The position numbers and the translations under genes are program-made. Below the pieces are notes generated by a model. It did not search any database. It was given only the letters and a program-made list of their open reading frames with translations, and was not told where the DNA came from. Of a DNA stretch of 34,823 bases, positions 7,034 to 32,907 are shown piece by piece (the stretch's first letter is position 1; every line of letters starts with the position of its first letter). This stretch comes from a virus, in the UHGV virus genome UHGV-0108273; one strand, 5' to 3'.

Positions 7034-7051
7034 TTTGATTTTCCTCCCTTA

Positions 7052-8626
7052 TTAAACAATTAATTGACATAGAAATGTGATTTTTGTATCGACGTCTTCA
7101 GGACTTAGTGTGAAGGTAAAACCATCGTTGCCAAGTCGCTCATCGTCGGCTGATATAACTCCAAATGAATCGTCATTAAGTCGTTGCCAGCTCCATTCAA
7201 GGTATGCACCAGGACCAACTGCCTCTTTAAGGGTTTTCATATCTGTAATTCTTCTGCTTCCACGATAAATAACCGCCGATAATACGGTGGCTACTTGATC
7301 GTTCTTAAATACAGTTCCTCTCGATGATTCAATCCTCAAAAGAGTTGTTACTTCATCCTCAATCTGGGTCATATGATTTTTGATGCTATCAATCTCTTCT
7401 TGAAGACTTGGACCGCTGCTACCACCAGCAGACATTGATATGCTGTTTGCTGATATTTCGAGCTTATAAGTACCGTCTTCTGTTTTATAATATTTCAAGA
7501 AATTGCTAGAGTCTCCGAAAGCTATTTGCCCCTCATTATCGAGATAAATACCACGAGTATTGTTATCTACAGTCTCTTTAACTCCAGAATATATGGAATT
7601 GTTTGTTATATTAAGTCCACCAATAGTTGCGCCAAAAGCAACCAAATCGCTAACTGATATCTTCTCTGCTGTTACTGATTTCGCTCTAATGACTTGTCCA
7701 TTAAGGCTGTTATAATCAGTTTGTTCGGCTTCTGTGGTAACTCCATCTGTATTAAGTTTGTAATATAGACCGTCTTCACCTTTCACCACTAACTTATCAG
7801 CAACAATAGTATTGGCTTCAATCATGTCACCACGGATAGTAACACCGACCAACTCTCCTGTGAGCGTTTGATCTCCTACAACCAAATCTTTAATAAGACC
7901 ACTTTCAGTAAATAAGTTTGTAATAGCAGCTTTTCCGATATTGGAAAAATCGATATTGGCATATTTACCGTCAAGGTTGGCAATTGTAGCGTTGATGGCA
8001 GTTAAATCCTCTGTGGTAAGATTCTTGAAGTTACCAAAGTCAGATTCTAAATTATGAATATTAGCGTCGACAGCTTCCAGACTTCCTATTGTCGCGTATT
8101 TAATATCAGCTATATCGGCATCGAGTTTCTTAGCGTTTAAGTTTTCTATTTCCGCAGAATTAGCGGTTAGTTTCCCTTCAATTGTTGCATCATTGGCTTT
8201 TAATGTTTCAATATCGGCTTTGCTAGCAGTCAATGTATCTTTAATAGTCACATTATCACTGACTAAGTCATCGATACGACCCATCTGAGCATCGAATTCT
8301 TTAGTACTTACTTTGTCAGCAATTACTATTTCGAATTCTGATATTTGATCACCAATTTCCGTAACAACTTTATTACTAGCCGACGGGGATGACGTGCTAC
8401 CAGTGACAGTCGCAGAATGGTCTTTAATTGTCACAATAACTCGGTCACCGTTTTCTACTACTGTAGTAGATTTCATAGGTGTTAATAGATCAGACCCATC
8501 AAGCTTTACAAATTTCTCACCATTGTAATCGACTATTGTTCCAAAAGAGGTGCTTTCGGAAGGTTCCTTTTTGGTATCTTTAGTCGCTTTTACGAATTGT
8601 GATATCAAATCGCTAGAGAGTCCCAT
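7052..8626 (-). CDS. Tail fibre / baseplate protein with coiled-coil-like repeats (524 aa)
   Basis: Long ORF in the structural operon; heptad-like N/D/I/L-rich central region (ANSAEIENLNAKKLDADIADIKYATIGSLEAVDANIHNLESDF...). Confidence 0.55.
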   Translation of the reverse strand: MGLSSDLISQFVKATKDTKKEPSESTSFGTIVDYNGEKFVKLDGSDLLTPMKSTTVVENGDRVIVTIKDHSATVTGSTSSPSASNKVVTEIGDQISEFEIVIADKVSTKEFDAQMGRIDDLVSDNVTIKDTLTASKADIETLKANDATIEGKLTANSAEIENLNAKKLDADIADIKYATIGSLEAVDANIHNLESDFGNFKNLTTEDLTAINATIANLDGKYANIDFSNIGKAAITNLFTESGLIKDLVVGDQTLTGELVGVTIRGDMIEANTIVADKLVVKGEDGLYYKLNTDGVTTEAEQTDYNSLNGQVIRAKSVTAEKISVSDLVAFGATIGGLNITNNSIYSGVKETVDNNTRGIYLDNEGQIAFGDSSNFLKYYKTEDGTYKLEISANSISMSAGGSSGPSLQEEIDSIKNHMTQIEDEVTTLLRIESSRGTVFKNDQVATVLSAVIYRGSRRITDMKTLKEAVGPGAYLEWSWQRLNDDSFGVISADDERLGNDGFTFTLSPEDVDTKITFLCQLIV

Positions 8627-8632
8627 TAAATA

Positions 8633-9709
8633 TCACCCCCATAATTTAGTTGTAAATACAGCTTTCTCTGTAACTGGACATCCAGGCTCACATTTGATAG
8701 ATTGACTAACAACTTTGGCTTTTATGTTACTTATTCCAGCTCGTTTATAGTTAAGACGTACACAATCATTTAACCGTACAGGACAATACGCGTGAGTATA
8801 TGTCACCGTATATTCAAGGCAGGACACTTCACGGAGTAATTGCTCTGCATATTTTTGAATCTGTGATTCGGTCGGTATACCTGACAAGCTAGGATTAGTC
8901 ACTCGATGTAAAATCTCTCGACCGCGATTGATAGTAGAAGTTGGACTATTTTCGTCGTCATTAACTGCCCTACCGTAATAAATATCGTTAGCGTCAGAGT
9001 ATACTACCTCAACAACATTCGGTATTCCGTACAGATCATGATTTACTGTTATCTCAGGATACAAGATAGAACTATTATTATCATCATAGGTATGAACAGG
9101 TTGCAAAGAGGCCGTATCCTGATCGGGAGCGAAAAGAATACGACCTAATTCGTCTAAACTAAGTTTATATTTTGCATTTGATATCAAATCCGAAGTAAAT
9201 GTTATCCAAGTATCATCCGTGTTTGCTACAAAATCGTTATATAATTCAGTCTCATTGTCTGCTTTTATAACTGGTGCTCTTACGTTGTCACGACATATCT
9301 GATAGGCCATTTTCATGATGTTCTCGCCTTTTAATATGGAATATCCAAGAGGTGGTGGATTCTCCTTTAACTCAATCAGTGGTGTGTAAGCGTCAAGAGT
9401 GTTGTCTTGTTTCTTACCGTCGAATGATGAGGATGGGGTTTGAACTAAGTAAGTGCCTAGAGGATGTTTCTCAGTTAATCCATTTTGAATCGTAATGAGA
9501 TAAACCCTCACATAGCACTCACCGATAGTTTCCGTAATATCTAATGTAGCTGATCCAAGTGTTTCAGCCCCTGAGTCTCTGGAAATAGAACACGATTTCA
9601 CGGTATCTATTCGTTTCATATCTTTCCATGTGCCTGGATCGACTATATAGTATTCAAATGTCTGTTCCATCGACTTAGTCCAATCTGGCATATCAGATAC
9701 CTCCTTCAA
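8633..9709 (-). CDS. Tail / baseplate structural protein (358 aa)
   Basis: ORF overlapping the upstream gene by 17 nt and positioned among tail genes; no specific domain recognised by eye. Confidence 0.5.
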   Translation of the reverse strand: MKEVSDMPDWTKSMEQTFEYYIVDPGTWKDMKRIDTVKSCSISRDSGAETLGSATLDITETIGECYVRVYLITIQNGLTEKHPLGTYLVQTPSSSFDGKKQDNTLDAYTPLIELKENPPPLGYSILKGENIMKMAYQICRDNVRAPVIKADNETELYNDFVANTDDTWITFTSDLISNAKYKLSLDELGRILFAPDQDTASLQPVHTYDDNNSSILYPEITVNHDLYGIPNVVEVVYSDANDIYYGRAVNDDENSPTSTINRGREILHRVTNPSLSGIPTESQIQKYAEQLLREVSCLEYTVTYTHAYCPVRLNDCVRLNYKRAGISNIKAKVVSQSIKCEPGCPVTEKAVFTTKLWG

Positions 9710-11771
9710 CTCTTGTTATGTCTAGAGTAACCGGAATAGTGACATCGGAATGTTTCTGATTAAAAGATACAGTGATGTTTGCCCAATAGCCGCTTCCGGA
9801 CGGTTCCCTAACATACACATCACCCATCCATACGGATAAACGCCGTAATGCATAAAGAGTCTCTTTGTCTTCCTTAGGAATAACCATATTCCAAGTTGCA
9901 GAAGCGCCAACATGAGTGCCATAATAACTAACCGGATACTTTCTTCCGATATAATTTACGAGTGTACTATCCGGTTTGTTATTGTCTGATACATCAATGT
10001 TGTAAGGGATTTTCAGCATCGAACCTACCCATGGAGGAGTTTCGAGTTCTTCGTCTTCAGTTGTGTTAAAATTGGTCCATTCATCGTCCCACTGAATTAT
10101 TACGGAATTGCCTCCTACTGGATACCCAGGTGGATCATAGTAACTAACAGAACCTGTACTTTTCGATGTGGCGACAATTCTATATCGCGCGTAATCTAAA
10201 GCTGGGTGTGGATCAGTTACGTATGATTCATCTAAAGGAGATAGACCGGTAGCTAGCTCGGTAAATGTTCCATCAAACTCTTTCCTATAAACCGATAGCT
10301 CAACATCGGCCACAGCTTCCGACATTTCGTTCAAACAATATGGACTTATGTATGCTGTGTATGTTTCTTCGTCAATTCCTATTTCTGCATCCGGTTCATA
10401 TGTGAATTCAGTCCATGATACATCGAATTCTAATTCCGCTTCTGACGTAAGACCGGAATCCATAGAAGCAGTGCATTTAACTGTATAGCTGATGGCATTT
10501 TCGAGATCTATACTATGTGCAGAGATCTCCAATAACAACTGCTCTTTAGTGTCAAAGTACTGAGAATATAATGCTTCTCCTGCGTTTATTATTTTCTCAT
10601 TGCCTATTTCATCAACTGTTGTGTAAACTTCATTCGATGTTATTTCAACATGATATCCAATTGGCATCTGAGTGTTAGGACCAGTTTCACACTTAAGATA
10701 AATAGGAAACGAATTTACTGTAGTGATAATATTATTTTGATTATCAGTCAAATTCATGGACAATGTGGCCGGAGCATAAACGTTAACTGTTCTCTGTATC
10801 GACCAATCGCCATACTGTTTAGTTACACCAGCAGTTCTAACTCGCCACTTTATAACAGTGCCTTCTTTGTATTGGGTAGTATCCACAGAATAGAAACTGG
10901 TTCTATCTTTATCTTCTTCGACATTGGTATTTTCTATAGTGTGGGTTATTTTTTCTTCATCATAATATATCTCTAATTCAGCAAACGTCTGACTAGAGCC
11001 GTCTTCCGCATTATGAACCCAATATAGAAGTAACTCTTCCCCAGTAATCGCGGTAGTTGTTGAAGACCATGTTGTAGGAGCTGATGGACTTTTACCAATA
11101 ACTATGGATTTAATCGATGTCCATGACGATTCTCCATTATCGTTTACAGCTCGTACTCTAAAGAAATATTCCTGTCCTGATTCCATCCCGGTTATCTGAG
11201 CATATTGGTAAGCAGTAGATGTCACGCTTTTAACCTCTCCAGGATTTTGATCGAAATACGATTGTTTTGTTGTATATTCGATAGTAAAGCTTGTAGCATT
11301 CTCTACTTTTTCCCATTTAAGCTGCACAGACGTGTCCGACGTAGCCTTGATGAAAATTATTTCTTTAGGAGCTGCTGGTACTGTTCCTGCTGAATTCGAG
11401 TAATCAGACCATTCGCCATAGATTTTATCGCTTCCGTATAGGTTCACTGCTCTACAACGAACTCTGTAGTCTGAACCTGGATTAATAGTAAAAGACGCCA
11501 CAGCTCTACAGGTCTGAACCTTTACTGTCGACGTCTTAAACCGAGTTGCCCCACTATAAACTTCAAAAGCGATCTGGTCAGTTCTAGGATCATCAATGTT
11601 ATCGATAGTTGCTGTTAATGTGTACTTATCGATTTTTACACTTGGTGCATTAGGCTTAGCAGGAGGATTACCTGCAAAATTCAAGTATGCACTAGCTTTA
11701 GTGGCAGTCCAATAAGCAACGTCTTTACCATTCACCTTATGCTTTTTAGCGACAGGTTTAACATATACCAT
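9693..11771 (-). CDS. Tail structural protein with two N-terminal fibronectin type III-like domains (692 aa; possibly distal tail or baseplate component)
   Basis: FN3-like segments, e.g. 'PAAPKEIIFIKATSDTSVQLKWEKVENATSFTIEYT...ITGMESGQEYFFRVRAVNDNGESSWTS'. The annotated ATG at 11771 has no obvious Shine-Dalgarno, and the reading frame stays open 49 codons upstream into the preceding gene. Confidence 0.6.
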   Translation of the reverse strand: MVYVKPVAKKHKVNGKDVAYWTATKASAYLNFAGNPPAKPNAPSVKIDKYTLTATIDNIDDPRTDQIAFEVYSGATRFKTSTVKVQTCRAVASFTINPGSDYRVRCRAVNLYGSDKIYGEWSDYSNSAGTVPAAPKEIIFIKATSDTSVQLKWEKVENATSFTIEYTTKQSYFDQNPGEVKSVTSTAYQYAQITGMESGQEYFFRVRAVNDNGESSWTSIKSIVIGKSPSAPTTWSSTTTAITGEELLLYWVHNAEDGSSQTFAELEIYYDEEKITHTIENTNVEEDKDRTSFYSVDTTQYKEGTVIKWRVRTAGVTKQYGDWSIQRTVNVYAPATLSMNLTDNQNNIITTVNSFPIYLKCETGPNTQMPIGYHVEITSNEVYTTVDEIGNEKIINAGEALYSQYFDTKEQLLLEISAHSIDLENAISYTVKCTASMDSGLTSEAELEFDVSWTEFTYEPDAEIGIDEETYTAYISPYCLNEMSEAVADVELSVYRKEFDGTFTELATGLSPLDESYVTDPHPALDYARYRIVATSKSTGSVSYYDPPGYPVGGNSVIIQWDDEWTNFNTTEDEELETPPWVGSMLKIPYNIDVSDNNKPDSTLVNYIGRKYPVSYYGTHVGASATWNMVIPKEDKETLYALRRLSVWMGDVYVREPSGSGYWANITVSFNQKHSDVTIPVTLDITRVEGGI

Positions 11772-11890
11772 GACACTTATCGCATTTGACGGGACGGTGT
11801 ATGTAGATTGGTGTACTTTTTCTTGTGAATTACTTCCTACAAAAAATATTCCATCACCAGTGCTATAACGCCATTCAACTTGATAATAAT

Positions 11891-12247
11891 CTACATAAAA
11901 GATACTGACCTGGTTCCATCACCGAAGTCAGTACCACTTCCATCTTTTATCAGATATCCGACATTTATAGCGGACTGAATATTATGAGTACCACTTTTAT
12001 TCCTGCCTAGAACAGCTCTTGCTCCTTTAATCTGAGTAATTTTCCATGTCTCATTAAAAACCCAGGAGGAAATGCTAACACCGTTATACCATGTAGCACC
12101 ACTTTGAATTGTTACCCATTCGCCTACTCGATAGTTTCCAATTTGTTCTGCATATATTTTTGCCGGTTCTTTAAAGTCCCATGTAGCGTAATATGTACTA
12201 TCTGTACCAGACTGAAGCGCTAATTTAAGATTGGTAACTGACGCCAT
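11891..12247 (-). CDS. Hypothetical tail protein immediately downstream of the tape measure gene (118 aa)
   Basis: Strong RBS (AAAGGAGGA, about 8 nt spacing) and ATG 4 nt after the tape measure stop; no recognisable domain. Confidence 0.55.
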   Translation of the reverse strand: MASVTNLKLALQSGTDSTYYATWDFKEPAKIYAEQIGNYRVGEWVTIQSGATWYNGVSISSWVFNETWKITQIKGARAVLGRNKSGTHNIQSAINVGYLIKDGSGTDFGDGTRSVSFM

Positions 12248-12251
12248 TAGC

Positions 12252-15200
12252 TTATATCCTCCTTTCTATCACGGCTGCTCTTACAATTTCTTTAACAGCT
12301 TCTGTAATATTGCTTCCATCATCATAAGTAAGACCGTTAATGTTATATGAAACACCACCAACATTACCTAAGTCTTTACGAAGTCTGTTTATTGCTGAAA
12401 CAACATCATCCATAGATCCATTTTGAATTCTTTCACCCATCATAGAATTTATGGTGTTTAGTCTTGACATTACTCCCAATGTAGGAGTTCCATTCAACAT
12501 GCCGTTAATTGCACTAGCTCCAGATTTAATATCAGACAAATCAAGGACTGGTCTTATTGTCGGCTGAGTGTTGATATCTCCGTCAAGAAGACTCGAAATT
12601 CTCGACATTGCTGTTTGAGTACTGTTAACAGCGTTATCGGACATTCTAGAAATAGATTGTTTCACTAATCCTCCGAACATACCGATACCCTTAGCAAATC
12701 CAATAGGAACATATGAACCTATTTTCATGAACACCCTTGAAGGTGAATGAATAGCAAGATTAGCCCTAGCTGCTGCCGATGCTGCCGCTGCCATTGAAGC
12801 TGCTGCATTTGCCGCCGACCAAATGTTCGCTTGAATACCTGCTACAAATCCGCTAGCTACATAAGATCCAGAACTATAAAAGCTTGAATAATATCCTCTA
12901 GTAGAAGATACTGCTGAAGACAATATCGACGTTGTTGTGTTCACAACACTTGAAGCTCTACTTCGCATACCGTTTACGAATTGTGTCATTAAAGCAACGC
13001 CATTAGTTCCAAATACGGATCTTTTACTGCTAATAGCTTTAAGCATCGAGTTGATAATATTGGTAGCTGTTGATGTTACCAATGCTTGTTTTGATTTCAA
13101 ACCATTAGAGAAAGATGTAATTAAGTTCGATCCAATGTTCGACATCTTAGACGTTGAACCACTAAATGATTTAGTAATACTATTCATAGAAGTTTGACCC
13201 AAAGTAGATACAGCAGTTTTAAACGATGCTACGCCGCTTGTGTTAAGTCCGGCCAAACTACTAATAAAATTCTTAATCTTAGTAGCCGCTGTTATAGAGC
13301 TAGATATTGATCCGACATTTATACCTGCAACAGAATCAGAGTAACTTTTTAAAGTACTTCCGATAGTTCCTATCTTAAAGTTTGAAACTCCACTAGAATC
13401 CAAACTTGATAGTCCCTGAATAAAAGTCTTTAATCTATTTGCCGCAGTAACAGAAGATGTAACTTTACCAGAGTCCACATTTTCAACCGACTTAGAGTAG
13501 CTCTTCAAAGTAGTTCCAATAGATCCTATTTTGAAGTTACTAACACCACTACTATCCAATCCCGTAAGACTTGATACAAAATTTCTAAGTCTATTTGCTG
13601 ATGATATGGATGATGAGACTATACCCGGGTCCATATCTTTAACGGAGTTTCCGTAGTCCTGCATAGCCTTACCTATGGAATTAATCTTGAAGTTTTCAAT
13701 ACCGCTTGTATCAAGACCCACCAGACTAGCTATTAAACTCTTAAGTCTTAAAGCTACTGAGACTGCTGTGTTTACTTTAGCGATATCGATATCGGCTACA
13801 GATTCTCCGAACTTACCTATAGCCTGTCCAATATTAACCAAATGACCGTCTCCGGCTCCAACACCTGCAAAGCTACTAACACCACTTGCATCGAGATCGG
13901 CTAAAGCGGTAATCAGGTTTTTAATCCTATAAGCGGCTGTTATGGCGGTGTTTATACCATCAGAGTTTATGTTTGCAGCGTCTGTTGAGAATGTAGTCAT
14001 GGCCGAGCTGAATTTTTCGACGTATTTTGAGAATTCCTCAAGATTCATCTTACCGTCAAACCAGCCTTCTTCTGGAAGGGCTTCTTGAAGAGCTATAATA
14101 GCGCTACCTGCATTCGTTACGGATGTTACGACTGCTTCCGATATACCGTCCTCTCCCATTCCGGTTTTAAGTTTGCCCATAGCTGTAGCAAATTGACCTA
14201 TGTTTTCGCCAAAAGTTCCTAAGTCATCTTTTCCGGTAAACCAGTCGATTACTCCTCCCATATTCTCAAGAGAAGATTGTAATCCAGCAAGTTTAGTAGC
14301 CGCATTTATAATAGAAGTAATTGAATCATCATCTATTTTTGTATCTCCTAAATCGGCAAAAGCAGTTTTCATCGATCCCATAAAGCTAGCGACACTAGAC
14401 CCAAAAGTCCCTAAGTCGTCCCTTCCAGTGAACCAGTCAACCACTCCTCCTATATTTTCAAGCGATGACTGCAAGCCTGATAATTTAGTAGCTGCGTCGA
14501 TGATTATGCCGATTGCTTCGGTATTTATTTTGACTCCGTCTAAGCTTGAAAATGCTTTTGTCATAGATCCTATAAATAGACCTATATTTACACCAAATGT
14601 GCCGAGGTCGTCTCTACCTTTAAACCAGCTTATTACTCCGCCTATTGGTTCAAGGCTAGATTGAAGTTTACTCAGTTCAGCAGCTCCAGTAATGATCGAT
14701 GTTAAAGCTTCCGTATTGAAGGATACTCCGTCAAGACCTAGAAAAGCATTCTTCATTGAGAATATAAATTGACCGACGTTAGTTCCGAAAGTCGCGAGGT
14801 CATCCCTGCCAGAGAACCAATCCATAACACCGCCTATAGGCTCCAATGACGATTGTAATTCGCTAAGTTTCGTTGCTACATTTATCACAGCGCCCATTGC
14901 CGCCTCGTCTATTGTGATTCCAGCAGAAGCTTGCGATATCGCTTTCATAGCATTGAAGAACGCAACACCATCGGTCTCAAACTTCTCCATAGAAGTACCA
15001 CCGAGAGTGAATATGTCAGCGATAGAAGTACCAACTGTTGTAAATCCTATCTCTGCCATAGCACTCATTAAATCGGACACGCCATCGAAAGATCCTGATT
15101 TAATACCACTAGCATTTTCGCTTGCTATAGCTAGTTTGTCCATGAAATCAGCAATATTTTGACCTATTTCCGGTAAACTTCCGGTAATACCTTCTCCGAT

Positions 15201-18200
15201 TCCTCCTATGAATGCTCCGATTCCTTTGCCGATTGCGTTTCCTATTTTTCCTAATAATCCACCGCCAGCTTCAACAAGGGACGAAAAACCTGGAATTTTA
15301 GATAACCCACCGATTGCTGCCAGAAGTACTGCTATCTCAGCTATTACAGCACCAACGGCTAATACTCCGGTCATTGCTGGGCCGGCTAAAGCTCCAGCTC
15401 CGGCGAATACTTTCATCAATATTCCGATTACTCCGAATGCACCTATGCCTTTTAGCATAGTATCCATATCTAAATTGCCTATCGAATCGACGATACCTTT
15501 GACAACTTGTCCGACAAAATTCATTATTGCCGATATTAATTCTGGAGTATGCTCGGCAAGACTATTAATAACTCCGATTATAAAACCGAGAAGTGAATCG
15601 ACAATCTGTGGTGCATACTGTTCTAATGCGTCTAAAACGCCTAAGAGCAGTTTCAGAAAACTTTCAGCCAATTGAGGTGCATATTCTCCTATAACTTTTG
15701 CGATTTCGACGATACCTCGACCTATTACTTCAGCAATTTGTGGAATCAATCCTAAAATACCGGTGATTATAACTGTTATTGATGCGACAAGCGCTGTGGC
15801 ACCAGCAGTTCCAGCAGTAGCAAGAGCTGTGAATCCAGCTGATAGAGCAAGTATACCAACGCCAATTCCAGCTATAGCTACAGCAAATATAGCCATCGCA
15901 GCGGATAAACCAAGTATTGCCGGAGTGAGTGGACTCAGAAGAGCTCCAGCTACTCCTATTACTACAAAGGCTCCAGCAAGAGTTACGAGACCTTTTACTA
16001 TGCTCTCCCAACTCATAGATCCTAATGATTTCAATACAGGTGTTAAAATTGCTAATCCAGCAGCTGCAACAACTAATGCGGCAGACCCCTTAAGAGATCC
16101 ACTCATGGCTTTTAATCCAATAGATAGCTCGACCAAAGCTATTCCAAGTACAACGAGTCCTTTTCCTATACTCTCCCAGCTCATCGATCCTAATGATTTT
16201 AAGACTGGAGTTAATATAGCAAGTGCTGACGCCATCAAAAGCATTTGACCGCCGAACTTAGCGATAGATCCACTACCCTTGCTCATAATTTTAGAAGCTA
16301 ACACCAGCATTGTAACAATACCTAATATTCCAGCTCCACCTTTAGCTAATTCGTTCCAACTCATAGAACCCAAACTCTTACCAACAGCAGCCAAAATGCC
16401 AACCGCAGCTGACATGATAAGCATCTGTCCAGCAAATTTGGTTATAGACTTACTTTCAGTATTCATGAGTTTGGCAGCACCAACTAATATAGCGACTATT
16501 CCTAATATTCCGGCCCCACCTTTGGCTAATTCTTCCCAACTCATTGAACTGAGAATTTTAGCGACTCCAGATAACGCTGCTATTGCTGCTGATAATATAA
16601 GCATCTGTCCAGCAAATTTGGTTATAGACTTACTTTCGGTATTCATAAGTTTAGCAGCCGCGACGAGTATAGCTACCATTCCACCAATACCAACGAGGCC
16701 TTTTGCTACACCGTTCCAATCAAGTCCAGCTATAATTTTCATAGCGCCTGCTAATATAAGAATAGCTGCTCCGAGTCCAATCATCTGAACAGTTCTAGCT
16801 ATACCTGACAAACTTGATACTATACCAGATAAAGGTTTGACACTTTTGCTGTTTATTTTTTCAAGCACTGCTAATGCAGATATCAACTCTACAAACAAAC
16901 CGCCTATTGCGCCTAAAGAACTTCCGAGTTTATCCTCGTCTATTCCAGATATGACAAAAAGAGCCGCTGCCAGTATTCCAATAGCACCCGCTATTTTTAG
17001 CAATGTTCCGGCTTTAAGATTCTGTTGCCATGATTCCAAACTTCCCTTAACGCCATCAAGTATTTTTTTAACGTTATCTAAGAAACTTATTTTTTCGAAT
17101 GGATCAGATAATCCTTTAATAAAGTTTCTTATGGCTAGTAATATTCCAGCAAACAATCCGCTGTTTAATACTTCGAAAATATCGCCTTTACCAAAGGCAT
17201 CGGCTATCATATTACCTATATCGGAAAAAGCTTCTCCGATGGCCGCGCCAACCGACTTTATAGTGTTCCATAGACCGGAAAAGAAGCCAAGAAAACCTTG
17301 AAGTGTAGGAGAAATCTTAAAACTCTCAATAAGTGAGCGTCCAAACTCTGCTATTTTTGAAATCCCGTTGCTAAGAAATCCAACAATTTTATCAACTGCG
17401 TCGCCAAACAGATTTCCTTCTACTATGGAGTCTCTCACATTCGAGATAAAATCTCCAAAAGAACTCGTTGCATCCAGTATTCCTCCACCAAGTCCGGTGA
17501 AGTTTCCAATAATATCTAGAGCGCCTTTTCCAACAGCTTTAAAAGCCTCTATAACAATATCGATAGCGGAAAAGATTCCTTTAAATGTAGATTTTATTTT
17601 AGATGCAGCGCCTTCACTTACTTTTAAAGTATCAGTGAAAGCTTTGAATCTATCAATCATACTTACTACTTGGTCGACTGTAGTAGGTGGAAATATCTCT
17701 CTAAAAGCTTCTTTTATCGGTTTTATTATATCTCCAAGGAATTTGAATATATTTTTCAAACCCTCTATAATTTTTTCTCTACCGCCAAGCTCGGTTATTC
17801 CATCGATAAGACCATCTATGTTGTCTTTTAATTTATTCGTAGATTCGTTTGCTTCATTTAGCGCTTTTAATGTAGCGTCATCAACGATACCTGTTATTTC
17901 TAAATCGTTAGCTTCCTGAAAAGCTTTAATAGCTGACTCTGTGGCACTTCCGAAAATTCCATCAGCACCAGAATCGCCAATATCATAGTTAAGGCTTTGT
18001 AATGCTTTTTGTACTTTTGTTACGTCGTCTCCTGTATTACCTTTCGATAAACCGGCTTCGACTCCACTTAAATCTACAAGTTCGCCTTTTAATCCGCTAA
18101 CAGCTTCTTTTAAAATATCAGAAGATATGGCACCAGATTGAAAAGCTTTTTCTAGAGAACCATATTTTTTTATGATCTCGTCCATATTAACGCCATGGTC

Positions 18201-19415
18201 CTCAGCAATCGATCTAACTTTTTCCTCAAAAGTATCGGTTTCTACACCAGCTTCATTTATTTTTTTTACAAGCTTATCCCAGTTAGAAGACATCGCGCCT
18301 TCCAATAATTCGTTACGAGATTTCGCTGATGATTCAACCATCTTTCCAATGGTATCTGAAATTCCAGTGAACAATTCTTTGGAGTCTTCAAAATCACCGA
18401 CAAGTATTCTCCAAGTTTGACCCCATCCAGATTGGAGAGATTCTTTTACCGTATCTATCAGCTGTGTGAATGTTTTTACTTTTGAAGCAGCGTCTTCAGC
18501 GTCCTTCGCTAAAGCCATAATATCGTTTGCTTGAGATTCGCTATAACCTTGGGCAATAAGATCGGCCTTACTATATGCGCCAGACAATTGGTTAAGAGTT
18601 TCAGTTAATACCTCGGTCGTTAACCATTCACCTTTTGTTAGGCTTTCTCTAAAGCTGCCATATGTATCAATAGCTTGTTTAGCGCCTGTTCCCAAAAGTT
18701 CAGACGTTCTAACAAGTGCGTCCTGAAATACCTTACCACCCATACCGGCATTAACAACTGAGTTCCAGTCCATAAGACTAACTTTACCTGCCGCCAATGC
18801 CTGAGAAAGCTGATACATCGCAGTAGATGCCTGTTGAGAAGTTGATCCAGAAACTGCGGCCAAGTTCGCAATACCTTTAATAGCATTAACTGAGGTATCA
18901 AGTTTTACACCAGCTGCTGTAAACGTACCGATATTACGAGTCATTTCCGTAAAATTGTAAATCGTCTTATCGGCATATGTATTTAGCTCATCTAAAGCCT
19001 TATTTACAATATCAACATTAGTGCCTTCCTGCCTTGTATTGGATAGAATTGTCTGAATAGCACCAATCTGAGTTTCGTATTCTTGGAAACCGCTTTTAAC
19101 CGGATCTATAGTTAATGCTGATATCATACGTTTACCAGTGTTAACAGCCTGGTTAGTGATGTTTGCTAAAGCAGTTACACCAGCGACCTGTAGTGCTGAA
19201 AATTTAGCCTGAACTGTCTCTATACCACTGCTCATTCCTGCAAAGCTAACACCTTTAGCAGCCTTACCGACATTCTCCAACCCTTTGGAGGCACCAGATA
19301 GATTTAACTTTTGTTTGAGCTTATCGAGAGTTGACATACTGGTTGCGACTCCGCTCTCAAACTGCTTATTGTCGAACCGCATCTCCAAGACTCTGTTGTC
19401 AATAGTCGTACTCAT
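12252..19415 (-). CDS. Tail tape measure protein, 2387 aa, with a peptidoglycan-binding (PG_binding_1-like) domain and three families of internal tandem repeats
   Basis: N-terminal region typical of tape measure proteins; 'GDDVTKVQKALQSLNYDIGDSGADGIFGSATESAIKAFQEANDLEITGIVDDATLKALNEA' matches the PG_binding_1 pattern; long hydrophobic and Gly/Ala/Ser-rich repeat blocks; start overlaps the upstream gene stop (ATGA). Confidence 0.88.
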   Translation of the reverse strand: MSTTIDNRVLEMRFDNKQFESGVATSMSTLDKLKQKLNLSGASKGLENVGKAAKGVSFAGMSSGIETVQAKFSALQVAGVTALANITNQAVNTGKRMISALTIDPVKSGFQEYETQIGAIQTILSNTRQEGTNVDIVNKALDELNTYADKTIYNFTEMTRNIGTFTAAGVKLDTSVNAIKGIANLAAVSGSTSQQASTAMYQLSQALAAGKVSLMDWNSVVNAGMGGKVFQDALVRTSELLGTGAKQAIDTYGSFRESLTKGEWLTTEVLTETLNQLSGAYSKADLIAQGYSESQANDIMALAKDAEDAASKVKTFTQLIDTVKESLQSGWGQTWRILVGDFEDSKELFTGISDTIGKMVESSAKSRNELLEGAMSSNWDKLVKKINEAGVETDTFEEKVRSIAEDHGVNMDEIIKKYGSLEKAFQSGAISSDILKEAVSGLKGELVDLSGVEAGLSKGNTGDDVTKVQKALQSLNYDIGDSGADGIFGSATESAIKAFQEANDLEITGIVDDATLKALNEANESTNKLKDNIDGLIDGITELGGREKIIEGLKNIFKFLGDIIKPIKEAFREIFPPTTVDQVVSMIDRFKAFTDTLKVSEGAASKIKSTFKGIFSAIDIVIEAFKAVGKGALDIIGNFTGLGGGILDATSSFGDFISNVRDSIVEGNLFGDAVDKIVGFLSNGISKIAEFGRSLIESFKISPTLQGFLGFFSGLWNTIKSVGAAIGEAFSDIGNMIADAFGKGDIFEVLNSGLFAGILLAIRNFIKGLSDPFEKISFLDNVKKILDGVKGSLESWQQNLKAGTLLKIAGAIGILAAALFVISGIDEDKLGSSLGAIGGLFVELISALAVLEKINSKSVKPLSGIVSSLSGIARTVQMIGLGAAILILAGAMKIIAGLDWNGVAKGLVGIGGMVAILVAAAKLMNTESKSITKFAGQMLILSAAIAALSGVAKILSSMSWEELAKGGAGILGIVAILVGAAKLMNTESKSITKFAGQMLIMSAAVGILAAVGKSLGSMSWNELAKGGAGILGIVTMLVLASKIMSKGSGSIAKFGGQMLLMASALAILTPVLKSLGSMSWESIGKGLVVLGIALVELSIGLKAMSGSLKGSAALVVAAAGLAILTPVLKSLGSMSWESIVKGLVTLAGAFVVIGVAGALLSPLTPAILGLSAAMAIFAVAIAGIGVGILALSAGFTALATAGTAGATALVASITVIITGILGLIPQIAEVIGRGIVEIAKVIGEYAPQLAESFLKLLLGVLDALEQYAPQIVDSLLGFIIGVINSLAEHTPELISAIMNFVGQVVKGIVDSIGNLDMDTMLKGIGAFGVIGILMKVFAGAGALAGPAMTGVLAVGAVIAEIAVLLAAIGGLSKIPGFSSLVEAGGGLLGKIGNAIGKGIGAFIGGIGEGITGSLPEIGQNIADFMDKLAIASENASGIKSGSFDGVSDLMSAMAEIGFTTVGTSIADIFTLGGTSMEKFETDGVAFFNAMKAISQASAGITIDEAAMGAVINVATKLSELQSSLEPIGGVMDWFSGRDDLATFGTNVGQFIFSMKNAFLGLDGVSFNTEALTSIITGAAELSKLQSSLEPIGGVISWFKGRDDLGTFGVNIGLFIGSMTKAFSSLDGVKINTEAIGIIIDAATKLSGLQSSLENIGGVVDWFTGRDDLGTFGSSVASFMGSMKTAFADLGDTKIDDDSITSIINAATKLAGLQSSLENMGGVIDWFTGKDDLGTFGENIGQFATAMGKLKTGMGEDGISEAVVTSVTNAGSAIIALQEALPEEGWFDGKMNLEEFSKYVEKFSSAMTTFSTDAANINSDGINTAITAAYRIKNLITALADLDASGVSSFAGVGAGDGHLVNIGQAIGKFGESVADIDIAKVNTAVSVALRLKSLIASLVGLDTSGIENFKINSIGKAMQDYGNSVKDMDPGIVSSSISSANRLRNFVSSLTGLDSSGVSNFKIGSIGTTLKSYSKSVENVDSGKVTSSVTAANRLKTFIQGLSSLDSSGVSNFKIGTIGSTLKSYSDSVAGINVGSISSSITAATKIKNFISSLAGLNTSGVASFKTAVSTLGQTSMNSITKSFSGSTSKMSNIGSNLITSFSNGLKSKQALVTSTATNIINSMLKAISSKRSVFGTNGVALMTQFVNGMRSRASSVVNTTTSILSSAVSSTRGYYSSFYSSGSYVASGFVAGIQANIWSAANAAASMAAAASAAARANLAIHSPSRVFMKIGSYVPIGFAKGIGMFGGLVKQSISRMSDNAVNSTQTAMSRISSLLDGDINTQPTIRPVLDLSDIKSGASAINGMLNGTPTLGVMSRLNTINSMMGERIQNGSMDDVVSAINRLRKDLGNVGGVSYNINGLTYDDGSNITEAVKEIVRAAVIERRI
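13250..16800 (-). repeat. Intragenic tandem repeats within the tape measure gene (three repeat families, about 45-62 codons each)
   Basis: Protein repeats 'LSSLDSSGVSNFKIGSIG..LKSYS.SV...', 'LQSSLE.IGGV.DWF.GRDDLGTFG...' and 'AKLMNTESKSITKFAGQMLI.SAA...LSSMSW.ELAKGGAGILGIV' recur 4-6 times. Corresponding DNA stretches recur (e.g. 'ctcccaactcatagatcctaatgattt' near 16000 and 16180). These generate the spurious plus-strand ORFs at 14200..17301. Confidence 0.8.
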
Positions 19416-19789
19416 ATCTTAGTAACCTCCCTCCAGGCCTCTTCTGCCATTTTGTCAAAAATAGGCTGAATCGCAGGATTGATATAATCTCTCCCTTGAA
19501 CCCAGCCTCCAGTACCAGTCCCATGACCATATTGCAAAATAATAGCGATTGGTACACCTTTATTAATGTTAGAGTTTGTAAAAGTAATCTTTGCTGATCC
19601 GGATGTATTCTCAATTTCGTATCCCCACGATTTAGCAGTCAATCCAGATTCTACAGGAGTAGCAGACATAAGAGCAGCCACCCCTTCCCGACCATATTTG
19701 TCGAGTACGCTGAGCTTTGCATTCCCTTTAAGTTTCTCAAAATATCGAGTAACTTTAGAGAAGTCTCCCTTATGTCTGAAACTAATCAT
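19412..19789 (-). CDS. Small phage protein, possibly an HK97 gp10-like tail component (125 aa)
   Basis: Size and position immediately upstream of, and coupled to, the tape measure gene; weak resemblance to gp10-family proteins judged by eye only. Confidence 0.4.
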   Translation of the reverse strand: MISFRHKGDFSKVTRYFEKLKGNAKLSVLDKYGREGVAALMSATPVESGLTAKSWGYEIENTSGSAKITFTNSNINKGVPIAIILQYGHGTGTGGWVQGRDYINPAIQPIFDKMAEEAWREVTKI

Positions 19790-19804: not shown

Positions 19805-21373
19805 TTACAGTAGCTCGTTAACTCGATCCTGAATTTTCTGAATCATGTTGTGATCGTATCCAGCTTTTGCGAGGGCATTAATTCGTGCATCTCCATTACC
19901 GTATTTTCCGGCAATGACATCACGGGCTACATTATCAATCACTATCTGATTTACTTTCTTCTGCACAGTGTCTGGATTATAACCAGCTTTCTTGAGAGCA
20001 GACACACGAGCATCACCATTACCCCATTTTCCAGCTAAAACCTCTTTAGCTACTTCATCGATAGATTTAGTAGGTTTTGCAGGAGCTTTAAGTAGTTCAT
20101 TCACTTTCTTCTGTACAGTGTCTGGATTATAACCAGCTTTCTTGAGAGCAGACACACGAGCATCACCATTACCCCATTTACCGGCGATTACTTCTTTAGC
20201 AATTTCATCGATAGATTTGGTCGGTTTTGGCGTAGATGTAGGTTTAGATGTTGGTGCTGGTGTGGAAGAACTTTTCGCATATTTTGGTCTAGCAAAACCA
20301 CGAATCATACCCCAGCCAACCGGAATGGTACGTCTTGCTACTGCTTCTCCTCTGTTACCTTCAATCGCTGTGATTTGTCCGTTTGAAACAGATTCCACAT
20401 ACCCGATATGATCAGAATATCCGTCGTTTGGCTGAGTCTTATCATCCCAGTTATAAACAATTACATCACCAGGTTTCGGAGTAATGGTGCCGTCCTCGAC
20501 CCAAATGCCTTTCTGCTTAAAAATCTTAATATGTTCCTCACAACCAACTTCTGTACCGATGAGATCGACTGCTCCGGATTTGATAGCTGCTGCTGATACT
20601 GTACAATCACACCATTCATCATTAGGTTTAATAGCGTATCCGCGAGCCAAAGGTTTGTGAGAATTATAGATGTTAAGAATCTCAATATATTTACCGTTAG
20701 CTTCAGAATAACCGAGCCAACTTCTCATAACATTAAGAACGTCCTGTGCTGTTACACCCAATTCCGTATCCTCCTGTTTTCCGTAAAAATAGTTCATGTC
20801 GACTTTACCTTTAATACCGCCTACAGTTCCGGAACTCGTATACTGATGAACCAAACAACCGTAATCTGCTTTTCCGTTATAATCAGCGAGCCAGAATTTG
20901 TACTGTTTAATCAGATCATGATTATACCAATTTCGATAGTAGTCGATATTTGCGTAGATTCCAGCTTTGTATCCCTGAGATTCTACGTACTCACAAAAGA
21001 TTCTTGTAAAGTTATTACATTCATTTTTACCAAGTCTCACACCTTTTGCAGCTGCTTTCTTGACTGTGTCATATTCGAAATCTGCGAAGATGATTGTGTT
21101 TTTATCAAGACCAGCTTTTCTAACAACATCAACACAGAATTTTGCTTCGTCAAGTGCGCCCTGTTCGTTTAAGGCATAAATAAAATGGTAAGTTCCTATA
21201 ATCGGAATCTTGTTGTTTTTACACCCATTGACATACTCATAGAATTTTGAATCTACTGTCTTCCTGTAAGAAGATCTAAGAATCGCGAACTCTATTCCGG
21301 AGGACTTGACTTTAGAAAAATCTACATCTCCCTGCCAATAGCTGATATCAATTCCTTTCTTCACAATCATCAT
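19805..21373 (-). CDS. Modular peptidoglycan hydrolase: GH25 muramidase + CHAP-like peptidase + three CW_7 (Cpl-7-type) cell-wall-binding repeats
   Basis: N-terminus 'GIDISYWQGDVDF...FAILRSSY...IGTYHF' fits the GH25 signature. Central Cys...His...E/N segment ('WCDCTVSAA...SDHIGYVESVSNGQITAIEGN') is CHAP-like. Three C-terminal repeats 'KSIDE.AKEV.AGKWGNGDAR.SALKKAGYNPDTVQKKVN' match CW_7. No signal peptide seen. Confidence 0.85.
   Translation of the reverse strand: MMIVKKGIDISYWQGDVDFSKVKSSGIEFAILRSSYRKTVDSKFYEYVNGCKNNKIPIIGTYHFIYALNEQGALDEAKFCVDVVRKAGLDKNTIIFADFEYDTVKKAAAKGVRLGKNECNNFTRIFCEYVESQGYKAGIYANIDYYRNWYNHDLIKQYKFWLADYNGKADYGCLVHQYTSSGTVGGIKGKVDMNYFYGKQEDTELGVTAQDVLNVMRSWLGYSEANGKYIEILNIYNSHKPLARGYAIKPNDEWCDCTVSAAAIKSGAVDLIGTEVGCEEHIKIFKQKGIWVEDGTITPKPGDVIVYNWDDKTQPNDGYSDHIGYVESVSNGQITAIEGNRGEAVARRTIPVGWGMIRGFARPKYAKSSSTPAPTSKPTSTPKPTKSIDEIAKEVIAGKWGNGDARVSALKKAGYNPDTVQKKVNELLKAPAKPTKSIDEVAKEVLAGKWGNGDARVSALKKAGYNPDTVQKKVNQIVIDNVARDVIAGKYGNGDARINALAKAGYDHNMIQKIQDRVNELL
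19840..20230 (-). repeat. CW_7 repeat array at DNA level; two copies nearly identical (about 19953..20036 and 20103..20186, period 150 bp)
   Basis: 'ctttcttctg[c/t]acagtgtctggattataaccagctttcttgagagcagacacacgagcatcaccattaccccattt' occurs twice with 1-2 mismatches; the third copy is more diverged. Confidence 0.8.
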
Positions 21374-21959: not shown

Positions 21960-22373
21960 TTAAGCTCCTGGAAGCAGATTCTTTGAATTAGCTTCCTGTG
22001 CAACATCAGCCGGAACGATGCCGTTAATAAATGCCGCTGCTGCTTCTGCGTCTGTAGCAAGTTCCATGAAGAGTGTGGAATAAGCTTCTGTCTGTGAAAA
22101 CTTTCTTGACAGTGGTCTTCCGTCCTCATCAAGTTTCATGAAACCTTTACCATCCGGAGCCTTTTCTCCATATGCTTTAAGAATAAGATCTTTAAAGATA
22201 GCTACGATTGTCGGAGTATCCTGTGCTGCCACGACTTTCTCAATCATCTCAGCGAATCCACCAACTGTAGATAATTCCATCTCCATAATTTCTGCTTTAG
22301 AAAGGTTGAAGTAATATGTATCTTCTCTTTCTACTCCGTTGTAATCTGTGTATTTAATAGCTTTTTTTAACAT
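21960..22373 (-). CDS. Putative tail assembly chaperone (G-like), 137 aa
   Basis: Small acidic protein directly downstream of the putative major tail gene and terminator; RBS AAAGGAGAA; assignment by position and composition only. Confidence 0.45.
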   Translation of the reverse strand: MLKKAIKYTDYNGVEREDTYYFNLSKAEIMEMELSTVGGFAEMIEKVVAAQDTPTIVAIFKDLILKAYGEKAPDGKGFMKLDEDGRPLSRKFSQTEAYSTLFMELATDAEAAAAFINGIVPADVAQEANSKNLLPGA

Positions 22374-22469: not shown

Positions 22470-23135
22470 TTACGCACCTGTCGTAGTTTTCATCATAGTA
22501 GCAACCTCATCCGGGAGTGGAAGTCTTGCTTCTGTATCCTCGTCACCGTAAAGAACTGCCTCCAGTGCTGCCAGTTTAGTTGGATCAGCTGTGGTAGAGT
22601 CGATTATGAGATGAGATGTAGGTTTGAAATTAGCTACAGATACCGGAGTAGTACTACACTCCCAGGACATAGTAGCCGCTTCCGGACTATCATTTACAGT
22701 CGCACGAGATACTTCGGAAGGAGCTGCAAGAGCACCGTATACCAGATGCAGTTTGTAACCATGTGATTCGCCCTCTGTATCATTACCAATAAGGCTTCGA
22801 TAAGATAAACCGAAATTTTTACGTTTCTGCTGTCCAATCTTAACGCCGGTTGCAATTTCTCCTTCACCGTTACATTCTGCGAATTCATCGGGATACATAT
22901 AAGCTTCGATTGTGAAACCAAATTCCTCAGCGGACATAAGTGTCACATACTTAATGTTATCTGCATAGAGCGGTGTCGGTTCTGCTCCAGATGGTGATTC
23001 TGTTACAGCTGTAAGACCATTCCATGCTGCTCCTTTCGGATAGTTTCCATCAGTTCCCATTGGATAAATTACGCCATGATCGACGCCAGTTTCAAACAAA
23101 CGTTCGCCTGTTGCGTCCCATACAAGTTTAGCCAT
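22470..23135 (-). CDS. Putative major tail protein (siphovirus-type), 221 aa
   Basis: Size, position after head-tail genes and before the chaperone-like genes, and the strong terminator immediately downstream (typical of highly expressed major structural genes); Gly/Thr/Ala-rich beta-type composition. Confidence 0.55.
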   Translation of the reverse strand: MAKLVWDATGERLFETGVDHGVIYPMGTDGNYPKGAAWNGLTAVTESPSGAEPTPLYADNIKYVTLMSAEEFGFTIEAYMYPDEFAECNGEGEIATGVKIGQQKRKNFGLSYRSLIGNDTEGESHGYKLHLVYGALAAPSEVSRATVNDSPEAATMSWECSTTPVSVANFKPTSHLIIDSTTADPTKLAALEAVLYGDEDTEARLPLPDEVATMMKTTTGA

Positions 23136-23789: not shown

Positions 23790-25727
23790 TTAGGCAGTTT
23801 CTTTCACGAATTCAAGAGCTACTGCGGAATACGGTTTAACAAGTGTACCGGAGCAACGTGTCTCCATAAGATACTTCTGCTTGTTGTAATCGATATCGAA
23901 ATCATCGAAGAAGTTGATTTCTCCACCCTTATCTGTACCTACGTTGTAATCTTTAAGATTTACATAGATACCAGCAAGCTCATATGTCTTATTTTCATCG
24001 TCTGTTCTTGTAAGACCTTCCATTACCGGAACCGGAACGATTTCTCTTACGCGAAGAGATGCTGCAAGTTTCTGTACGCTATCATAGATAACACGTCCGT
24101 TTGTATCTTCAATGAGCAAGCAATCTGTAAGCATATCCTCAGACATGAACATATCAGGGTTGCCAGATCCTTTATAATTCTTTCTGGATTTGATGCAAGC
24201 TTTGATGAATGCCTTAGCTTTCTCTTCAGCAGTAGCGGAATCGCTTACATTGATAGCTGCTTTAACTGTGAAAAGATCTTCCATCTTCCAGATAGGTCTG
24301 ATGCAGTCCTCATTGATTTTATCGTTAGCCTCTTCAACCGGATCTCTTCCATCACCGATAAGGAATGCGCGAGCAAGTTCCTCATCAAGCATCATACGAA
24401 CTTCTCTCTTCAGCCATGGAAGAATATCGAAATCTGTAATATCAAGCATGTCATCGCGATCTAATGCCTGTTTCTTGTATACAGTTGTTGGATTTGTTAC
24501 ACGTTTGAGAAGCTTAAATACTTCTTCAATTTTAAGTTTGCCTTTCTGGTATCCCTTTGCTCTAGCCTGTGCTGCTGTGATGTCAGCAAAGATAGTTTTG
24601 ATACGGGAGAACGGTGTGTGATGTACTCCGCCAAGTACTTTTGATACCCAATCGTCATTACGTTTGATAAATTCCGGTTCATTGTTAAGATTCTTTGCAT
24701 CCGGGAATAAGATGTCAATGTCTGTGATACCATGAGCAAGCACTGCCTCTTTAAGAGAACCTGAGCGTTTCGCATCTTCGAAAATCGCAGTCATCTCGGA
24801 GTGTGTAAGCACATCATCTGCCATAGGGGTTTCATTGTCGAATACGTTGTGTTTCATATTTTTGTTTCCTCCTTCATTTTCATCATCTTCTTCGGTTTCA
24901 ACACCAGCATCTTCTAATGCCTGTCCGATCATAGCGTACACAACAGTTTTCTGTTTCTCAGAAAGAGTGTTGAATACATCAGCTACAGTTTCTTCTTTGT
25001 TTTCTCCCTTTGTTTCTTCCTCGGCATGTTTTACTTCTTCCTCAGAATGGGTTACTTCTTCTTTGTCTGGTTTATCATCGTTTTCTTCTTTGATACCAGC
25101 ATCTTCTAATGCCTGTCCGATCATAGCGTACACAACAGTTTTCTGTTTTTCAGAAAGAGTGTTGAATACATCAGCTACAGTTTCGTCCTTATTTTCTTCG
25201 GCATTATGTTTTTTGGTTTCTTCTGCCATTTTTTCTTCTCCTTTCTCAGAAGTATCTGCGTGGAACAATGACTCCACATTTTCGATATATTCGCCTGAGC
25301 TGATATATCCCTCTTCATAAGAATCTTCGCCATGCATCATGACAGACTCTATTACTGCGCCTGGATTAGCACCAGCTAAAACCAAACTAAGCTCACGAAT
25401 GACTCCGTGAACTACATTACTTCCCTGCTGTTTAAGTCTGTTGGCATATATGGAAAATCTATTCACATCACCATGCTGAACCAGCAATTTAGCATTCTGC
25501 CCTGATTCCGTATCGTTAAATGTGCAATATGCATACACACCTTCGTCCCTGTTTTCCAGCAAGGCATGACCGAGCACTTCATCTACGCTATTATGCTGAT
25601 GATTCCAAACTAACGGTACAGTTTCACCATCGCACTCTTTGAATGCATCTTTCATGATGACTCTACCGTCCGCACACAGCATGTCAGCTTTAGTAGCCCA
25701 GCCAGAACAATCATATGACTTAGCCAT
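23790..25727 (-). CDS. Fused prohead protease - acidic linker - HK97-fold major capsid protein (645 aa)
   Basis: N-terminal about 150 aa resembles prohead proteases (..VPLVWNHQHNSVDEVLGHA..); central acidic region with a duplicated 30-aa unit; C-terminal about 350 aa of capsid-protein size and composition; preceded by GGAGGCAGAAAATCAAAATGG. Confidence 0.7.
   Translation of the reverse strand: MAKSYDCSGWATKADMLCADGRVIMKDAFKECDGETVPLVWNHQHNSVDEVLGHALLENRDEGVYAYCTFNDTESGQNAKLLVQHGDVNRFSIYANRLKQQGSNVVHGVIRELSLVLAGANPGAVIESVMMHGEDSYEEGYISSGEYIENVESLFHADTSEKGEEKMAEETKKHNAEENKDETVADVFNTLSEKQKTVVYAMIGQALEDAGIKEENDDKPDKEEVTHSEEEVKHAEEETKGENKEETVADVFNTLSEKQKTVVYAMIGQALEDAGVETEEDDENEGGNKNMKHNVFDNETPMADDVLTHSEMTAIFEDAKRSGSLKEAVLAHGITDIDILFPDAKNLNNEPEFIKRNDDWVSKVLGGVHHTPFSRIKTIFADITAAQARAKGYQKGKLKIEEVFKLLKRVTNPTTVYKKQALDRDDMLDITDFDILPWLKREVRMMLDEELARAFLIGDGRDPVEEANDKINEDCIRPIWKMEDLFTVKAAINVSDSATAEEKAKAFIKACIKSRKNYKGSGNPDMFMSEDMLTDCLLIEDTNGRVIYDSVQKLAASLRVREIVPVPVMEGLTRTDDENKTYELAGIYVNLKDYNVGTDKGGEINFFDDFDIDYNKQKYLMETRCSGTLVKPYSAVALEFVKETA
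24903..25184 (-). repeat. Near-perfect direct duplication of about 90 bp (copies at about 24903..24992 and 25095..25184, period 192 bp) inside the capsid gene linker
   Basis: The two copies differ at about 1 nt; each encodes 'ETVADVFNTLSEKQKTVVYAMIGQALEDAG' in the minus-strand frame, embedded in E/D/K-rich sequence. Confidence 0.85.
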
Positions 25728-30662: not shown

Positions 30663-30691
30663 TTTGAATTTTCACCTCTTATCTCAAATAG

Positions 30692-31828: not shown

Positions 31829-31845
31829 TTTGACTCACCTACCTC

Positions 31846-32904: not shown

Positions 32905-32907
32905 AAC

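Follow-up and report, generated by a model that had tools for sequence, protein, structure and literature searches.

A predicted tape measure protein with three repeat arrays and a wall-binding domain in the virus genome UHGV-0108273

What does the longest tail gene of the virus genome UHGV-0108273 encode, and what can its repeats and inserted domain tell us about the tail of this phage and its way through the host envelope? We investigated this 7.2-kb gene, a single open reading frame (ORF) of 2387 amino acids (aa), within a stretch of 34,823 nucleotides (nt), here called the window. The whole window is a structural module of a tailed phage read on the minus strand, and its GC skew is uniformly negative. 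An initial annotation had taken the gene for a tape measure protein, and our searches bear this out. The ATG-initiated ORF has a TMP_3 domain in a conserved N-terminal region (aa 1 to ~345), and a PHROG search of the 2387-aa protein returned phrog_4372, ‘tail length tape measure protein’, with 1258 bits and E = 0. The C-terminus matches further PHROG tape measure families, including tape measure C-terminal ones, and aa 2065-2275 match residues 883-1095 of gp57 of the staphylococcal phage 80alpha (PDB 6v8i; E 3.1e-13), the part of gp57 that is present in the solved tail-tip structures. A tape measure gene should be the longest gene of the tail module and lie between the chaperone gene(s) and the distal tail or tip genes; this one lies downstream of a Phage_TAC_17 chaperone gene and upstream of the genes for an fn3 distal tail protein and fibres. 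We found no sheath gene in the structural module of the window, and the tail would therefore be of the non-contractile type. Judged by these matches, the gene encodes the tape measure protein of a non-contractile-tailed phage. With considerable confidence we propose that the phage is temperate, has a long tail, infects Gram-positive gut Clostridia of the Lachnospiraceae/Oscillospiraceae type and uses the protein as a ruler and in ejection, as set out below. Several ORFs of 154-183 aa on the plus strand inside the gene were considered and taken as antisense composition artefacts of an Ala/Gly/Ser/Leu-rich gene.

We then investigated the repeats. A self-BLAST of the whole protein gave the self match only, and it was replaced by BLASTP searches of 60-aa chunks against the whole protein, after which the repeats were printed in register. 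There are three arrays, named A, B and C (Table 1). Their units are 44-74% identical in A, 53-66% in B (inner units) and 45-60% in C, with E-values down to 5.5e-24, 4e-24 and 3e-22, respectively; such values (1e-22 to 1e-24) are far beyond chance. Units of B and C show a weak kinship to each other (38-42% identity, E ~3e-4). The three families read from the sequence at the outset are thus present with five units each, within the suggested 4-6 copies, but the suggested unit range of 45-62 aa is too narrow, as the B unit has 64 aa. A hydropathy scan (Kyte-Doolittle, 19-residue window, threshold 1.6) gave two hydrophobic helix-like segments per A unit, confirming that one family resembles membrane helices. 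Tape measure proteins are largely α-helical with hydrophobic segments, and this protein shows about 17-18 such segments and an AlphaFold2 model of aa 1440-2130 (arrays B and C) that is all-helical in secondary structure, at low confidence. At the DNA level the repeats are much less pronounced than in the protein, with copies 66-86% identical. Tandem Repeats Finder, when applied to the gene, missed the periods of A, B and C, whose DNA is too diverged, and reported just trivial arrays of 8-15 nt. The longest exact repeat within the gene is 41 nt.

This architecture is not peculiar to the window. There are at least 8000 homologue candidates, and relatives were found in IMG/VR (447) and in a metagenome collection (446). 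Although 2387 aa was called very large, the best 120 homologues span 2096-3111 aa, and the size is ordinary for the family rather than exceptional. The B/C repeat region matches 1164 cluster representatives (50% identity clusters, E ≤ 0.001), 298 of them at E ≤ 1e-30. Most of the best 150 matches are 2000-3100 aa long and carry the match in the C-terminal third, as in the window; about one fifth are shorter and may be fragments or other proteins. The four metagenomic homologues P0001, P0002, P0004 and P0005 and the wider PHROG 4372 family share the architecture and are already annotated with PF20155 and PF01471. The gene is an ordinary member of a widespread, annotated family. Tandem repeats are likewise common: of 45,500 tape measure proteins in IMG/VR, about half contain them (PMC13585406). 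Megablast against phage records gave no match, and the nearest record by tblastn is 43% identical. A literature search on Bifidobacterium phage BitterVaud1 found no paper.

Prophage-borne relatives of the tape measure protein are found in Hungatella hathewayi, [Ruminococcus] torques, Blautia faecis, Enterocloster lavalensis, Lachnospira hominis and Clostridium leptum, and in many metagenome-assembled genomes of Lachnospiraceae/Oscillospiraceae. These prophages indicate that the host is very probably a Gram-positive gut bacterium of the Clostridium class. The tape measure proteins of the isolate prophages, including the one in the complete chromosome of H. hathewayi DSM 13479, have 1600-2212 aa and A-type units; seven of them, of at least 2082 aa, have B and C units too. 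The same architecture in prophages of cultured isolates indicates that it is not a product of assembly. The relatives also bear on whether the ORF could, instead of a tape measure protein, encode a large protein of the membrane or surface, or have arisen artificially by the joining of several genes. The unusually large hydrophobic block would suit such a protein, and most of the length has no Pfam coverage. However, phrog_4372 at E = 0 together with the TMP_3 domain, the canonical place in the tail module, the same single ORF in hundreds of independent assemblies and isolate genomes, and the many full-sized matches to the B/C region make this alternative extremely improbable.

The number of repeat units varies. 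We counted B units with hidden Markov models (HMMs) built from the window's own units and found 3 to 14 in the closer homologues. For the 19 closest distinct proteins, length follows 1965 + 66.2 x B copies (R2 0.96), with P0001 corrected for a start called 26 codons late. Adjacent units in the expanded arrays of P0006 and P0014 are 83-88% identical, compared with 64% or less in the window, indicating recent duplication within the array. P0001, P0002, P0004 and P0005 differ from the window by whole repeat units, each having two B units more. P0001 is otherwise near-identical apart from its shorter called start, P0002 is encoded by contig L001, and P0004 and P0005 are ~75% identical to the window protein. 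Contig L001 is 99% identical in DNA to window positions 6415-19650 and differs within the tape measure gene only by unit-exact insertions and deletions (indels). It has two extra B units (384 nt), bounded in L001 by a 47-nt exact repeat (4832 and 5216), and one A unit fewer (180 nt), bounded in the window by a 41-nt exact repeat. These indels are the expected footprints of unequal recombination or slippage, and equally of an assembler whose k-mer is shorter than the repeat.

Thus, the copy number in the window (five B and five A units) could be an assembly artefact, the true gene having seven B units (~2515 aa), two of which were skipped across the 47-nt repeat. All four homologues named above have the two additional units, and common assembler k-mers are longer than the 47-nt repeat that bounds the 384 nt absent from the window. 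In a third near-identical contig, L140, 4.8 kb are identical to the window, and the contig stops right at the border of the B array, which shows that assemblies do break there. A 25-nt deletion unique to the window lies nearby. On the other hand, a clean, in-frame, unit-exact deletion is also a product of homologous recombination or slippage, and 3-14 copies occur among diverged relatives from many independent assemblies and isolate genomes. L001, with a coverage of only 3.2x and an A-unit loss of its own, is no better a reference than the window. We consider a miscounted window gene a real possibility but doubt it, and natural variation in repeat number is well supported. The initial annotation held that repeats in the DNA make the gene prone to length variation and to assembly collapse. 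Its first part agrees with the unit-exact indels; the second needs narrowing, since the DNA of the repeats is diverged and only exact stretches of 41-47 nt carry a risk of collapse. Its caution about assembly was nevertheless warranted, given the unit-exact indels between 99%-identical contigs and the contig ending at the B-array edge. In practice, when short-read metagenome assemblies are the source of a tape measure length, that length can be wrong by whole repeat units.

How long a tail would this protein specify? The lactococcal phage TP901-1 has a 118-nm tail, and its regression of tail length on protein length reaches zero at 127 aa (PMC5099701). In TP901-1, deletions in the repeats and in a hydrophobic region shorten the tail linearly (PMC5099701), and in mycobacteriophage TM4 the deletion of an embedded 114-aa wall-directed motif reduced the tail from 200 to 180 nm (PMC1796659). 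We therefore counted the hydrophobic block and the inserted domain toward the length. The tail of Arthrobacter phage Circum has been measured at 228.1 +/- 4.0 nm (S2 Table, PMC5513430). Its tape measure protein, a distant homologue, has 1492 aa, a calibration of 0.153 nm per residue that gives ~365 nm for the window protein. The TP901-1 regression, with a tape measure protein that we take to be 937 aa long, gives ~330 nm. A tail of ~330-365 nm is thus a reasonable expectation and includes the ~350 nm estimated earlier; each 64-aa unit would change the predicted length by ~10 nm.

We then investigated the wall-binding domain. The peptidoglycan-binding segment noticed near the N-terminus proved to be a complete PG_binding_1 domain, by profile and by predicted fold. 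The match covers the full-length Pfam model above its gathering score, and the AlphaFold2 model of aa 370-560 has a mean pLDDT (predicted local distance difference test) of 79, with 84-95 across the domain. The three-helix fold is superimposable on solved domains, namely the N-domain of SleB (6tci; template modelling score 0.88, root-mean-square deviation (rmsd) 1.0 A) and Clostridioides difficile 5tv7 (rmsd 0.5 A); phiKZ gp144 (3bkh) was also matched. The segment between conserved anchor motifs has 60, 171, 226 or 231 aa depending on the relative. The 226-aa form with PG_binding_1 is that of the window's group, and a 231-aa form with a CW_7 repeat is found in P0023 (aa 409-447, E 9e-12). From these comparisons, the slot is optional and exchangeable, holding PG_binding_1, CW_7 or nothing. 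Pfam searches at E ≤ 1 found no hydrolase family in the tape measure protein, and endolysin PHROG matches to it are limited to the binding domain (aa 443-534). Of the further Pfam families listed for relatives (PF22018, PF16202, PF20989, PF01565, PF14257 and PF12363), the first three were rechecked; they had weak scores with no single stretch above the cut-off and were rejected as real domains. The literature was also searched for non-catalytic PG_binding_1 domains in tape measure proteins, and no paper on them was found.

The domain might instead be a passenger captured from an endolysin gene, with no role in infection and tolerated since inserts merely lengthen the tail slightly. The slot is empty or filled with other sequence in many relatives, the nearest matches outside tape measure proteins are wall-binding domains of endolysins, and no catalytic domain stands alongside. 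Against this, the domain is intact, its profile match is complete, the model gives it a confident fold, and it is kept at 42-93% identity across relatives. Moreover, other lineages have a different wall-binding module (CW_7) in the same slot, indicating repeated selection for wall binding and not a random passenger. We regard the passenger explanation as unlikely, and a wall-binding role in infection is the reading followed here.

From established tape measure biology (lambda, TP901-1, TM4 and T5), a mechanism can be proposed. The protein would lie extended in the lumen of the tail tube with its C-terminus at the tip and would stop tube polymerisation at its own length, ~330-365 nm. During infection it would be ejected, and the hydrophobic block with its hairpins may insert into the membrane and form a conduit for the DNA, while the wall-binding domain may hold the ejected protein or conduit in the thick peptidoglycan. 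Length would be set, and would evolve, mainly in the repeat arrays and most of all in B, where recombination or slippage between short stretches of exact identity probably adds and removes units. Some points weigh against this proposal. The phage is known here from its sequence, and we infer both the membrane insertion of the hydrophobic block and the peptidoglycan binding of the domain. For the B/C arrays, the AlphaFold2 model (pLDDT only 37.7) provides no fold that could be used. That the slot is empty in many relatives indicates that the domain is dispensable for the basic function. Finally, the next tail gene of the window carries a frameshifting 25-nt deletion, and the window copy may therefore be defective or mis-assembled. 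This deletion lies near 11899 with TCTT microhomology at its flanks, is seen against the near-identical contigs L001 and L140, and leaves an 859-aa fn3 distal tail protein in two fragments of 118 aa and 692 aa. Either the prophage copy may be defective, or an error may have arisen in sequencing or assembly.

The surrounding genes are collected in Table 1. On the head side, the order is HNH endonuclease, four paralogues, large terminase, a collagen-like gene, portal, fused protease-capsid, connectors and major tail protein. On the tail side, the major tail protein is followed by Phage_TAC_17, a 186-aa gene, the hydrolase, the 125-aa gene, the tape measure protein, the fn3 distal tail protein and tail/fibre genes. 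The collagen-repeat gene between terminase and portal is in an unusual place for a fibre-like gene, and a 171-aa counterpart is present in the related locus L082. A fused protease-capsid arrangement has been described in Arthrobacter cluster AM/AU phages (PMC5513430). Within the gene of the window, an exact repeat of 54 nt occurs at 24903/25095 (spacing 192 nt). The plus-strand ORFs listed at 1-2440 (for example, 1268-1519) are antisense of the fibre-like ORF of at least 812 aa, which is itself absent from the ORF list because it extends beyond the window.

The hydrolase slot of the tail module is occupied in all six relatives compared, with varying catalytic domains (GH25+CHAP, Amidase_2+Glucosaminidase or Amidase_2). 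In one of them (L083), a holin gene follows the fibre genes, and the next gene has no hydrolase domain in its first 128 aa. The 522-aa hydrolase of the window could be either a displaced endolysin or a virion-associated lysin. Its gene contains the longest exact repeat in the window, a 65-nt direct repeat at 19965 and 20115, which from its position and 150-nt spacing probably falls in the CW_7 repeats. When the wall-binding modules of tape measure protein and adjacent hydrolase were compared across seven loci, they showed no consistent pairing. In L209, the fn3 distal tail protein (13313-15976) has a LysM domain and the tape measure protein has no wall-binding insert; within this phage group, modules for wall binding seem to be passed from one tail protein to another. 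The 125-aa gene precedes the tape measure gene in all six relatives with an upstream flank (L082-L084 and L208-L210). Its product is much more conserved against Circum (55%) than the tape measure protein is (about 32%), and it has only a partial match to a PHROG ‘tail completion/Neck1’ family and no Pfam family. One speculative and rather improbable possibility is that tape measure protein and hydrolase form a two-part wall-penetration device carried by the tail, the former with its exchangeable cassette and the latter a virion component instead of an ordinary endolysin. The hydrolase would then be loaded with the tape measure protein, perhaps via the 125-aa partner, and the number of B units would be tuned to the thickness of the host envelope.

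Table 1. Predicted features of the window discussed in the text, from the tape measure gene outward
Feature	Position	Strand	Remarks
Tape measure protein gene	12252..19415	-	ATG start, 2387 aa plus stop; homologues share MSTT(I/V)D start
TMP_3 domain (aa 137-283)	18567..19007	-	Pfam PF20155, 55.1 bits vs cut-off 41
Accessory insertion module (aa ~373-540)	17796..18299	-	No counterpart in relatives such as P0067
PG_binding_1 domain (aa 461-519)	17859..18035	-	Pfam PF01471, full model 1-57/57, 67.3 bits vs cut-off 23, E 1.4e-18
Hydrophobic block (aa 802-1375)	15291..17012	-	~17-18 membrane-helix-like segments, about 575 aa
Repeat array A (aa 877-1172)	15900..16787	-	Units of 60, 60, 60, 60 and 56 aa, every unit a hairpin of hydrophobic helices
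Pair of exact 41-nt repeats at 16417-16457 and 16597-16637	16417..16637		180 nt apart; bound the A unit missing in L001
Repeat array B (aa 1465-1784)	14064..15023	-	5 x 64 aa, motif GGVxDWFTGRDDLGTFG...LQSSLE, DNA spacing 192 nt
Junction where the window is without 384 nt (two B units) relative to L001	14592..14639		Corresponds to the 47-nt exact repeat of L001
Repeat array C (aa 1797-2064)	13224..14027	-	60 + 4 x 52 aa
C-terminal region (aa 2065-2275)	12591..13223	-	Match to 80alpha gp57 and PHROG C-terminal families
125-aa partner gene	19412..19789	-	4-nt overlap of its stop with the tape measure start; shares 55% identity with Circum gp21
522-aa peptidoglycan hydrolase (GH25 + CHAP + 3 x CW_7)	19805..21373	-	Inside tail module, between chaperone and tape measure genes
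Tail assembly chaperone (Phage_TAC_17)	21960..22373	-	Domain match
Major tail protein	22470-23135	-	Tail module
fn3 distal tail protein	9693..12247	-	Split into 118 aa (11891-12247) and 692 aa (9693-11771)
Fibre-like/collagen-like ORF, at least 812 aa	1-2440	-	Runs off low end of window
Fused prohead protease (Peptidase_S78, aa 17-94) and HK97-type capsid (aa 422-639)	23790-25727	-	Single 645-aa gene
198-aa collagen-repeat protein	27363-27959	-	Between terminase and portal
Four consecutive paralogues (190, 378, 352, 181 aa)	30090-33453	-	phrog_7502, phrog_32444, function unknown; just upstream of large terminase

Rarely can a virus dimension on the nanometre scale be predicted from a protein sequence; tape measure length is one such case. 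The natural series of B units, which accounts for 96% of the length variance in the closest homologues, could serve as a test of the ruler model among phages that infect anaerobes of the gut, and near-identical genomes differing by whole units add to this series. The exchangeable wall-binding slot, and a hydrolase gene fixed in the tail module, are leads on how a thick Gram-positive wall is crossed. We regard the B-unit series, the unit-exact indels, the slot and the tail-module hydrolase as modestly interesting leads and not as surprises.

Among known systems, the Arthrobacter cluster AM phages offer a close comparison. Circum gp22 is homologous to the window protein at the N-terminus, the centre and the C-terminus (32-37% identity), and the tape measure proteins of Streptomyces and Gordonia phages are related to this Circum-type group. 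Circum also shares the 125-aa gene immediately upstream and the same fused protease-capsid gene (PMC5513430). However, its tape measure protein is shorter by far (1492 aa vs 2387 aa), and its hosts are Actinobacteria, whereas those of the window phage would be Clostridia. The tape measure protein of TP901-1 shows the same layout of N-domain, hydrophobic regions, repeat region and essential C-terminus, and both its repeats and its hydrophobic regions add to tail length (PMC5099701). Its repeats have been proposed to facilitate duplication and deletion (PMC5099701). They differ in kind, being 11 or 18 residues long and marked by Trp/Phe, whereas the window units have 52-64 aa. A count of Trp/Phe spacings in the window protein gave 8 at 11 residues (6.0 expected, z 0.8) and 13 at 18 residues (6.3 expected, z 2.8 only), so that aromatic repeats of the TP901-1 type are not seen in this count. 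TP901-1 also has six predicted membrane segments, compared with ~17-18 here.

TM4 (motif 3), T5 (pb2) and phiIPLA35 resemble the window protein in having a cell-wall-directed module embedded in the ruler; assembly does not require this module, yet it adds to the length of the tail (PMC1796659, PMC6116005). In the window protein this module is a non-catalytic binding domain only; with no catalytic domain, the protein is therefore not of the hydrolase-bearing type represented by these three phages. The hydrolase of the window is encoded by a separate gene, two genes upstream of the tape measure gene. The PG_binding_1 domain probably serves the same step as the hydrolase motifs of TM4, T5 and phiIPLA35, the crossing of the cell wall.

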